This document shows positions 6,003 through 22,429 of a stretch of DNA of 64,000 bases, one piece after another. A program made the position numbers and the translations under genes. This stretch comes from Octopus sinensis (lineage: Eukaryota). The notes below the pieces were generated by a model. That model saw only the letters and a list, made by a program, of their open reading frames with translations. It was not told the origin of the DNA and ran no database searches. The stretch spans positions 76,136,001 through 76,200,000 of the forward strand of contig NC_043001.1 of assembly GCF_006345805.1 (NCBI RefSeq), read 5' to 3'. The stretch's first letter is position 1. Every line of letters starts with the position of its first letter.

Positions 6003-7113
6003 GAGAGAGAGACATACATATATATATACATATTTGTGTATATAATTATGTATGCGTGTGTATATAAGTGTGTATGTATATGTATATATGGGGGGGCCTG
6101 TTTTATGTACTTATATATACATACACACACACACACACACGTGCACACATATATATATATATATATATATAGATGTACGTGTGTTTAAATATATATGTAC
6201 ACATATACATACGTGTATGTATATATATATATATATGTACACGTATGTATTTATGTACATATATATTTAAACACACGTACATATATATATATATATGTAT
6301 TAATGTATGTATATATGTATGTATATAACACGTCCACATATATATTGTGGGCTAGATCGTGGATTCGATTCCTTGATTGGATGGCGCGTTGTGTTCTTGA
6401 GCAAAATACTTCATTTCTCGTTGTTCCAGTTCCCTTTCGGAGTGGGGTGTATGTTGGCCTACCCGACTAGCCAGTGGGGTGGCGGCATTTCAAAGCCAAA
6501 ACAACGCAAAGCGCATTGTGACCAGCGATGTGTAACAACTTCTGTTAGTCTGGTCGGCAGCTTTTGTATTTTTTGTTCGATTTTGATGAAAATTGATGAG
6601 TAAGCGAGACTCATGGCAGTGAATTAATGTCAGTGTATGGCGTTGATAAAAAATCGAAAATTGCACCTGAGCAGTGGTTTTATAAAATCAATAGGCTTTT
6701 TGCATGCAAATACTCATAAGGATTATATTTTTGACTGCAACTTTTATATTTTCAAGAAAATGGTCACATGGATTCTATTTTATGATATAACCTTAACACT
6801 TTTCTTCGGATTTTGCTGAGACTGGACACGCTGATCAATTTTGTACAGAGGGTAGCATTAAAGGGAGAGAAATAAACAAACGTCACTCTCAATGGGTTGA
6901 TGCACACCCAAAAGTTTGACTTCGATTTCAGACGGTCCAATATGTAGAATTATCTTGAAAACGTTAACCGGGTAAAATCCCTGCCAAACCAGATATAACA
7001 TCTTAATTGGTAATAGTCGGCACGGAGGACGTAGAAGATTTCAATACAAGGTCAGAGGTGGACTTAACTTCAAGACGGAAAACACAAGCAGTGCCATATC
7101 CAGCAGCTAGTAT

Positions 7114-7155
<42 letters not shown>

Positions 7156-7166
7156 ATATAATATAT

Positions 7167-7917
7167 ATAATTAATCAATATAGGGTGGCAAAAAATTTCG
7201 TAGAATTTTTTTGCCACCAGCGGCCTAGTGGGAAAAAATTAAATAGTCATAGACCATTTATAAATTCAACATCAAAATCAAGGAACGGCCATAATAGGCC
7301 ATTCACCCACTAGAAATAACAGCCAAAGCTTCAACCGCAAAACAACATTAATTCCGCAAACCAGGAGAAAATTAAAAAAACATTTACCCTGTAGTTCCTT
7401 ATACGATGCACCGTTTCATCTATTGATTTTGATGTTGAATTTATAAATGGTCTATGACTATTTAATTTTTTCCCACTAGGCCGCTGGTGGCAAAAAAATT
7501 CTACGAAATTTTTTGCCACCCTATATTGATTAATTATGAATTTTCTGGTTAATTCCGTAATGGAATCGGCGGCTTATATTTGCTGCCGATAAATTTGGCG
7601 CGATTGCGATGATTTGAAAATTTTAGGTCAGATATTGCCGAGACAGTGATTGAAGTGCCTCGTGTAAATATCTGCTCCGATCTGGCTGTTCTTACTGACG
7701 AATCTATCGGCCTATGGAAGACTAGCTTGATTTAATTTAATCAGGTTAGTTTACCATTAAACAATAGATGAAACGGTGCATCGTATAAGGAACTACAGGG
7801 TAAATGTTTTTTTAATTTTCCCCTGGTTTGCGGAATTAATGTTGTTTTGCGGTTGAAGCTTTGGCTGTTATTTCTAGTGGGTGAATGGCCTATTATGGCC
7901 GTTCCTTGATTTTGATG
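7167..7917 (+). mobile_element. Non-coding hammerhead-ribozyme retroelement (retrozyme or Penelope pLTR-like) with 5' inversion, inserted in (TA)n
   Basis: 7167-7281 is the reverse complement of 7423-7537; 7270-7425 is the reverse complement of 7762-7917; (TA)n on both sides; hammerhead at 7688-7793. Confidence 0.8.
7688..7793 (+). ncRNA. Type I hammerhead ribozyme, intact core
   Basis: Stem I GTTCTTA/TAAGGAAC; CUGACGA 7695-7701; stem II ATCTAT/ATAGAT with a 14-bp inner hairpin containing G-U pairs; GAAA 7770-7773; stem III ACGG-UGCA-UCGU; GUA cleavage triplet 7783-7785. Confidence 0.85.
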
Positions 7918-8146
7918 ATATATATATATATATATATATTATCTACATGCTTTCAAGCACTCTACTTAATTCTGTATTTATATATTAACGAGCAGGAATG
8001 AAAAACGGAACCGAATGAAAGAATGAAATATTGAAAGAATTGAAGAATAAGAAAATAAAGACGCAAACAAACATGAAAAGAAGAAATGTGAGAAAAATGC
8101 ATGAGAGTTTTACCAATGAAAGAAAAAAGACTAAGAGAGAGAAGGG

Positions 8147-21168: not shown

Positions 21169-22429
21169 TTAGGTAGTCAAGAACGTTCTTGCGGAATTTT
21201 TAATTTTTCTTTTAAATGATGTATTTTCAAATTAATTTTCGTTAAATTACTTTGACTTCATATATCATTTTAAAGCCCATTTTTCGCTCTATCTAATCGT
21301 GTTACACTTTTTCTTTGTGTATAATTAGGCCATTTTTTCTGGAACGTTGAAAACAACATGGACAAAAAGCAAATTCGCACAATGTTATTATTCCAGTTCA
21401 AGCTAGGCCGAAAAGCAGCGGAAACAACTCGCGATATCAACGATGCATTTGGCCCAGGAAGTAATAATGAACGTGCAGCACAATGGTGGTTCAAGAAATT
21501 TCGTAGCGGTGATGAGAATCTTGAAGCTGATAAGCGTAGTGGTCGGCCATCGGATGTTGATAACGATCAACTAAGTGCCTTATTGGAAGCCAATCCACGC
21601 ACAATTGTTCGAGAGCTTGCTTCTGAATTAGACGTAATTCTGAATTTCCAACCACTTGAAATAGATTGGAAAAACAAAAATAATTGAACGACAACCAAAA
21701 AAGAAAACGCCGTTTTGAAGTGTCGTCTTCCCTTCTTTTACGCAACAAGAACGACCCGTTTCTCAACCGGATTGTGACTTGCAATGAAAAGTGGATTCTT
21801 TACGGCAACCGGCGACGCTCAGCTCAGTAGTTGGACGCCGACGAAGTTCCACAGCACTTCCCGAAGCCAGAGTTTCACCAATAGAAGGTTATAGTGACTG
21901 TTTGGTGGTTTGTGGCCGGTCTCATCCATCACAGCTTTTTGGATCCAGGCGAAACCATTACGGCGGAGAAGTACTGTCAGCAAATGGATGACATGCATAA
22001 TAAACTCCGACAACAACAGCCAGCATTGGTCAATAGAAAAAGACCAATTCTTCTCCACGATAACATTCGGCCGCACGTCGCACAACTGACCCTGCAGACG
22101 TTGAACGAATTGGGCTACGAAGCTCTGCCTCATTCGCCATACTCACCAGACCTCTCACCTACCGACTACCACTTTTTCAAGCATCTCGACAACTTCTTGC
22201 GTGAGAAATGCTTCAAAAACCAAGACGATGCCAAACACGCCTTCAACGACTCCATCGCCACCAGAACGGAGGATTTTTACGCTACTGGCGTAAATAAACT
22301 TGTTTAGTGTTGGCAAAAGTGTGTTGGTTCTGATGGTGTTTATTTCGATTAATAAAGTTTTGCATGAGCCTAGACATTTGCATCTGAATTTAAAGGTTAA
22401 CAACCGCAAGAACTTTCTTGATAACCTAA
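21169..22429 (+). mobile_element. Full-length, inactivated mariner transposon (cecropia subfamily, Hsmar1-like)
   Basis: About 26-bp TIRs TTAGGTAGTCAAGAACGTTCTTGCGG / CCGCAAGAACTTTCTTGATAACCTAA, TA TSD; transposase from 21358 (MDKKQIR...GRKAAET) to HDN...YSPDLSPTDYHFF, with frameshifts and stops. Confidence 0.95.

Follow-up and report, generated by a model that had tools for sequence, protein, structure and literature searches.

At positions 7167 to 7917 of the window, i. e. the whole stretch of 64,000 nucleotides of Octopus sinensis DNA that was analyzed, lies an ordinary member of a repeat family whose head-to-head copies combine one long outer end (A) with one short outer end (B). This pairing was found at 92 of the 95 head-to-head loci with a measurable junction; the remaining three have one damaged end each, and neither A+A nor B+B was encountered. 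In its sequence, the family displays the hallmarks of a non-LTR retrozyme, and its classification as a retrozyme mobilized by Penelope-like elements (PLEs) is very probable. An inverted 5′-truncated copy, a tail at one end and an AT-rich or microsatellite target are all present, and the unit contains no ORF of the RT plus GIY-YIG type that marks an autonomous PLE. The first-pass annotation, which had likened the element to a retrozyme or a Penelope pLTR, is supported by this family anatomy.

The element is set in a (TA)n microsatellite, as had been proposed, which is visible in the sequence on its left (7111..7166) and right (7918..7939) flanks. An inverted A arm (7167..7425, minus strand) comprises unit positions ~340–483 and then 1–115 and terminates in the family's long end A. 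It is joined to a forward B arm (7423..7917, plus strand) that holds the full 483-nt unit plus 12 nt and terminates in the family's short end B. At the head-to-head junction (7423..7425), the arms overlap by the 3 nt TTG, with a 6-nt near-match reaching 7428. The reverse complement of 7167–7425 (259 nt) indeed equals 7762–7905 followed by 7423–7537, and 7906–7917 repeats 7423–7434 over exactly 12 nt, which confirms the unit length of 483 nt. Of the monomer originally delimited as 7423–7905, this length stands, but 7423 is a variable inner end rather than a natural start; likewise, the 12 nt that had been read as a clipped repeat are instead the fixed short end B. Between the arms there is one mismatch in 259 positions by direct comparison, and a printed arm distance of 4.05% for this locus is an alignment artefact of the TA flank. 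The mismatching C at 7821 occurs in one of 175 family units (T in 163, A in one, ten unreadable). As the lone difference is confined to the forward arm, this is a young copy. The stretch from site B (unit position 11) to site A (unit position 115) constitutes a 104-nt tail, which is an internal read-through at the focal locus (7434..7537, plus strand). Folding predicts a hairpin in it 17 nt upstream of site A (7486..7520, plus strand), a copy of which lies in the A arm (7184..7218, minus strand). The A arm additionally carries the 3′ half of the hammerhead described below, from GAAAC to the cut site with the 3′ strand of stem I (7394..7417, minus strand), i. e. an incomplete ribozyme. No stop-free frame of at least 110 aa overlaps 7167–7917.

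Directly left of the target microsatellite, window positions 6557–7090 are occupied by an older interspersed repeat with 2,267 candidates, which is 79–89% identical to other copies and lacks about 500 nt present in many of them. An AT/GT-rich low-complexity near-palindrome is located at 6133–6322 (95-nt arms, 84% complementary, no spacer), and fragments of a mariner/Mos1-type transposase (HTH_48, Transposase_1) were found at 21325–22304.

In the 2.7-Gb host genome, a similarity search with the unit yielded 1,412 candidates, 40 of which were scored, and one exact internal 25-mer occurs 2,734 times, so that the family has at least 2,734 units, distributed over roughly 1,000 insertions. The non-coding units measure 483–490 nt. 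As to the question whether copies are circular permutations or tandem arrays, they proved to be tandem arrays that are scattered over many contigs and reach about 12 units, with fixed outer ends at unit position ~115 (A) and ~11 (B). Genome-wide, 824 exact junctions of end A with (TA) and 595 matches of end B with (TA) were counted, the latter on the plus strand because a variable gap inflates the minus-strand count; both ends adjoin (TA)n. Clear slippage of the start site at B is rare (3/74; L027, L042 and L043). No empty site was seen in the contigs of public runs, and a TSD is unreadable within (TA)n. Inspection of the arms and flanks of 60 A-anchored loci revealed no ORF of the RT plus GIY-YIG type beside the copies. 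The unit is covered by contigs from runs whose RNA nature is a guess, and no RNA run is among the listed carriers of the unit. In run X12, the depth of the element relative to the neighboring older repeat was of the same order as in DNA runs, depth being a poor measure. A candidate intron with a donor near 7800 and an acceptor near 7478 was dropped, as no splice joint occurred in the run contigs.

A ribozyme within the monomer had been suspected as well, and a type I hammerhead layout with a predicted cut after 7785 was found at 7688..7793 (plus strand), based on sequence, conservation and compensatory changes. The elements CTGACGA (7695–7701), GAAAC (7770–7774) and GTA (7783–7785) are accompanied by a stem I composed of 7688–7694 and 7786–7793, a long stem II and a short, near-palindromic stem III. 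Rfam returned no match at the gathering score and no hammerhead among 12 weak matches, probably due to the combination of long stem II and short stem III. Across 75 loci with a divergence of up to 14%, CTGANGA is intact in 70 and varies only at N (C in 29, A in 27, T in 14), while GAAAC and GTA are intact in 71 and 74, respectively. When 66 loci were parsed, stem I opened with an A-U pair 51 times and with G-C 15 times without any mixed case, one pair of stem II was altered on both sides in seven, and a second, fully palindromic version of stem III was found in seven. To judge from the sequences, the motif is under selection, and self-cleavage of the transcript is predicted from the motif together with its covariation. 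The unconstrained fold of the unit is devoid of the active hammerhead core, and a predicted circle of the unit is strongly self-paired (z about −7 versus 30 shuffles).

The 95 head-to-head loci come from three pooled samples, i. e. 20 loci retrieved by an internal motif, 60 A-anchored loci and 34 loci found by similarity. In the internal-motif sample, taken in positional order, 17 loci have two arms, every one of them being A+B, for which the chance under a 50:50 expectation is 8e-6; by eye, the second arm in three of these is just 13–17 nt long. The A-anchored sample, which is unable to show B+B, comprises 47 inverted arms that end at B, two that end elsewhere and none that ends at a second A, as well as 11 of 60 loci without a visible second arm. 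Not counted among the 92 are L016, L146 and L202, each with one arm that ends elsewhere, along with a second neighboring fragment in L161, a locus that itself is B+A. The listings of 100 A ends and of 52 distinct B ends, inspected by eye, contained no two like ends that face each other at a distance of up to 30 kb.

The inner ends behave differently from these fixed outer ends, being spread all around the unit without a sharp limit at the ribozyme cut. A pile-up at the cut site (16 of 192 inner ends in a 21-nt bin versus 8.3 expected, p 0.01 uncorrected) was not accepted, with other bins reaching 12. Arm lengths span ~15 nt to 5.7 kb, and 87 of 184 arms exceed one unit; therefore, the template was longer than the cleaved monomer. 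The focal arms agree with this earlier proposal, since together they extend over 598 contiguous unit positions and each of them runs across the predicted cut after 7785. The suggested circular or tandem RNA template is thus upheld as regards its length, but the crossing of the tail-to-head junction does not prove a circle because tandem arrays (to ~12 units) would also supply this junction. At 36 of 92 loci, including the focal one, neither arm fits within the other, and one arm is therefore not a simple copy of the other. Where the arms meet, overlaps of 1–6 nt (44/92) prevail over larger ones (8/92) and blunt joints (3/92), and the other 37 junctions contain inserts (1–5 nt in 17, longer in 20), many of them copied from nearby sequence. 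The two arms of a locus usually resemble each other closely, with a median distance of 0.62%, compared with 5.9% between them and typical other copies (63 loci). The sole clear discordance is L013, whose arms are 7% apart and each ~0.5% from other loci; it could go back to two templates or to recombination at a later time. Within the arrays of 20 focal-family loci, variants comprise 101 private and 108 shared minor alleles. A stem in which site B pairs with site A was considered and rejected (probability about 0.2).

A sister family with a 535-nt unit was discovered by chance beside a PLE. Its unit is 61% identical to the focal one over 241 nt spanning B, the tail and A (E 2e-5), and features its own hammerhead motif with a palindromic stem III, a tail of 129 nt and the same A-end motif. 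The copies, for example L249:1264-2360 (G000:C6:12735263-12736360) and L253–L290, are 95–100% alike and hence very young, and form arrays of up to about 17 units; a similarity search gave 589 candidates. Among 26 loci that were picked by similarity and examined, 18 are two-armed, of which 17 are A+B and one is unclear. Sister arrays show one haplotype across their units and usually across both arms. This homogeneity is compatible with, though no proof of, a bottleneck of a single unit such as a circle, a reading to which we give an even chance. In L290:1937-4405, a four-unit arm, one variant is alternately absent, present, absent and present, as a dimeric template or the duplication of a dimer would give.

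Which PLE might act as partner was addressed by a GIY-YIG family search, 36 wider PLE regions and one endonuclease protein search. The genome contains intact RT plus GIY-YIG frames of 775–781 aa, including one of 781 aa in a young PLE family (L110:1174-4877 and L111), in two copies of which an overlapping 479-aa frame lies upstream that has no convincing Pfam match. No DNA similarity was detected between the unit and 85 PLE-containing loci (384 kb; best E 0.3 with blastn and 0.43 with nhmmer), a sample that covers a small fraction of the roughly 5,000 endonuclease candidates. Hammerhead-like motifs also occur near PLE loci (L114, L118 and L226), two of them with a long stem II like that of the focal motif.

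According to the available text of the respective reports, metazoan non-LTR retrozymes are likewise non-coding tandem repeats with a type I hammerhead per unit (PMC7229834; PMC7761336; bioRxiv 10.64898/2026.07.22.740005), and they share low GC, occurrence as dimers to multimers and co-occurrence with PLEs with the focal family. The 483-nt unit exceeds the 150–450 bp given in the text of PMC7229834 and falls within the 51–972 bp of bioRxiv 10.64898/2026.07.22.740005. The portions of the retrozyme literature at hand mention neither head-to-head arms nor two fixed ends, and the word "inverted" does not appear in the main text of PMC7229834. For the focal family, a circular RNA like that of retrozymes is putative.

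Closer parallels for the ends are provided by EN+ PLE insertions, for which the accessible text of PMC3846280, PMC8557442 and PMC11167929 describes a hammerhead upstream of two internal 3′ ends, as in the focal family, along with an inverted 5′-truncated copy, a tail on one end, AT-rich or (TA)n targets and partial tandems. Unlike these PLEs, the focal family has no ORF, and no matching autonomous element is found among the 85 sampled PLE loci. Its tail (104 nt, 129 nt in the sister family) is longer than the 30–40 bp stated for EN+ PLEs in PMC3846280 and PMC8557442. Furthermore, in the PLE descriptions as far as available the tail is optional or "often" at one end, whereas the focal family has one end of each kind in 92/95 loci; about 80% of its copies are two-armed, which also departs from these descriptions. 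Chlamys MRC1-type elements, non-autonomous PLE derivatives with multicopy head-to-tail insertions, resemble the focal family, but, by the accessible text, have 3′ sequence in common with an autonomous family that is known and fall into a clade that lacks canonical hammerheads (PMC8557442). Inverted copies with a tail on one end are hence already published for PLEs. In contrast, a retrozyme with such an anatomy, tails of 104–129 nt and a strict one-of-each rule was not found in the open-access main texts searched.

How do two different fixed ends come to face outwards at the same locus? We lean, with a little more than even confidence, toward a borrowed PLE enzyme that primes both target strands at two RNA sites, with the resulting cDNAs being end-joined. 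In such a process, a Penelope-like RT/GIY-YIG protein acting in trans would nick both (TA)n strands, using an RNA intermediate longer than one unit that may be a circle or an uncut multimer. Each nicked target end would then be primed via AT pairing over 2–4 nt, one cDNA starting at A and the other at B. Both cDNAs would run on for 15 nt to several kb, before their free ends are joined through microhomology or short templated inserts into the head-to-head form. Conceivably, an asymmetric, probably dimeric enzyme-RNA complex enforces one A plus one B. This model is supported by the one-of-each pairing in 92/95 focal and 17/18 sister loci, by the 36 of 92 loci, the focal one included, at which the arms are not nested, and by the discordant arms of L013. 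In the case of an anole PLE, both strands are cut and extended, two internal RT starts bracket the genomic tail, a dimer is predicted and uncleaved RNA is the main substrate (PMC11167929). Yet, the two strands did not differ in their start sites in vitro, which speaks against priming at two sites (PMC11167929). The model is also weakened by the lack of a partner PLE among the 85 sampled loci, by the scarcity of clear slippage at B (3/74), by the 11 of 60 A-anchored loci without a second arm, and by two observations that bring in a competing pathway: the arms nearly always share a haplotype, for which fold-back synthesis is the simpler explanation, and symmetric junctions are in excess.

Fold-back synthesis, which we regard as possible yet doubtful, would involve a target-primed cDNA that primes itself and is copied, whereupon the endonuclease resolves the hairpin at the other fixed site. 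Asymmetric junctions would then, just as tentatively, reflect a later loss of the centers from unstable perfect palindromes. Self-priming was proposed in PMC3846280 and resolution by an endonuclease in PMC8557442, as far as their available text goes. Junctions with inner ends at most 2 nt apart indeed occur at 14 of 92 loci versus 1.4 expected (maximum of 8 in 20,000 permutations). Several are centered on palindromic words, among them CTAG, which recurs at three loci whose flanks are unrelated and which represent two B-end subtypes, and the join in L184 lies at the natural hairpin of the tail. In the symmetric cases, moreover, one arm is longer than the other by about 104 or 379 nt, and the haplotype common to both arms fits as well. 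However, fold-back demands an extra, unobserved deletion at the 36 of 92 non-nested loci; at the focal locus, at least about 140 nt would have to be lost despite a one-base difference between the arms. Palindromic centers without a loop would better fit the annealing of two like cDNA ends, and both the discordance in L013 and a variant confined to the B arm at one site of the sister locus L266 also argue against the copying of one arm from the other.

Twin priming of the L1 type is improbable. In L1, second priming occurs at a variable site that directly adjoins the forward segment at its 5′ end, and the resulting 5′ inversions are head-to-head with junction microhomology and arms that do not overlap. 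The head-to-head form and the microhomology recur in the focal family, and the inversion resembling twin priming that had been proposed for the focal locus holds in a loose sense, but the outer ends are fixed, differ from each other and bear no relation to the inner ends. If one linear transcript were primed once at a fixed 3′ end and a second time at random, neither two fixed sites nor arms that overlap in sequence by hundreds of nt would be expected; in addition, the outer end of the inverted arm does not abut the inner end of the other arm, and a poly(A) tail is absent.

Even less likely is a foldback or MITE-like DNA transposon with long TIRs moved by a DNA transposase, notwithstanding the long inverted arms, the fixed termini, TA at both ends and the mariner-type transposase fragment within the window. 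Fixed termini with TIRs had been named as the finding that would point to such an element; the termini are fixed but unequal, and this is therefore not a foldback element with TIRs. The two termini are unlike in sequence instead of forming mutual inverted repeats, and TIRs extending from both outer ends were discarded, as one of these ends reaches 104 nt further into the unit sequence than the other at 92/95 loci. Further counterevidence comes from the span of arm lengths (~15 nt to 5.7 kb), the variable inner ends, the presence of one-armed 5′-truncated copies and a hammerhead under selection. Least probable of all is an assembly chimera at a microsatellite-flanked repeat: none of the short-read contigs listed bridges the focal junction, but the same architecture with different junctions recurs at 95 loci, and in contigs of the public DNA runs X2 and X1 the inverted arm passes into the forward arm at many different places (15 joints listed, with 71 more beyond the listing).

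In the available text of PMC8557442, it is called an open question how PLEs come to form head-to-head insertions that bear a tail at a single end, and the mobilization of animal retrozymes has been argued from co-occurrence and pLTR similarity in the accessible portions of PMC7761336 and bioRxiv 2026.07.22.740005. The present family offers about a thousand natural insertion products in which a short non-coding substrate bears PLE-type ends and the one-of-each rule can be counted, and the arm haplotypes of the very young sister family can separate synthesis from two primers from fold-back synthesis. As a more speculative extension of priming at two sites, an obligately asymmetric PLE complex could use two programmed sites on a circular RNA and perform rolling-circle reverse transcription on each strand. 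If this is true, every complete retrozyme insertion would consist of one long-tail and one short end, and the restriction of the PLE tail to one end would be explained. The strict A+B rule, shared by two families that are 61% alike, would then represent an in vivo footprint that links the circles of animal retrozymes to PLE enzymes.
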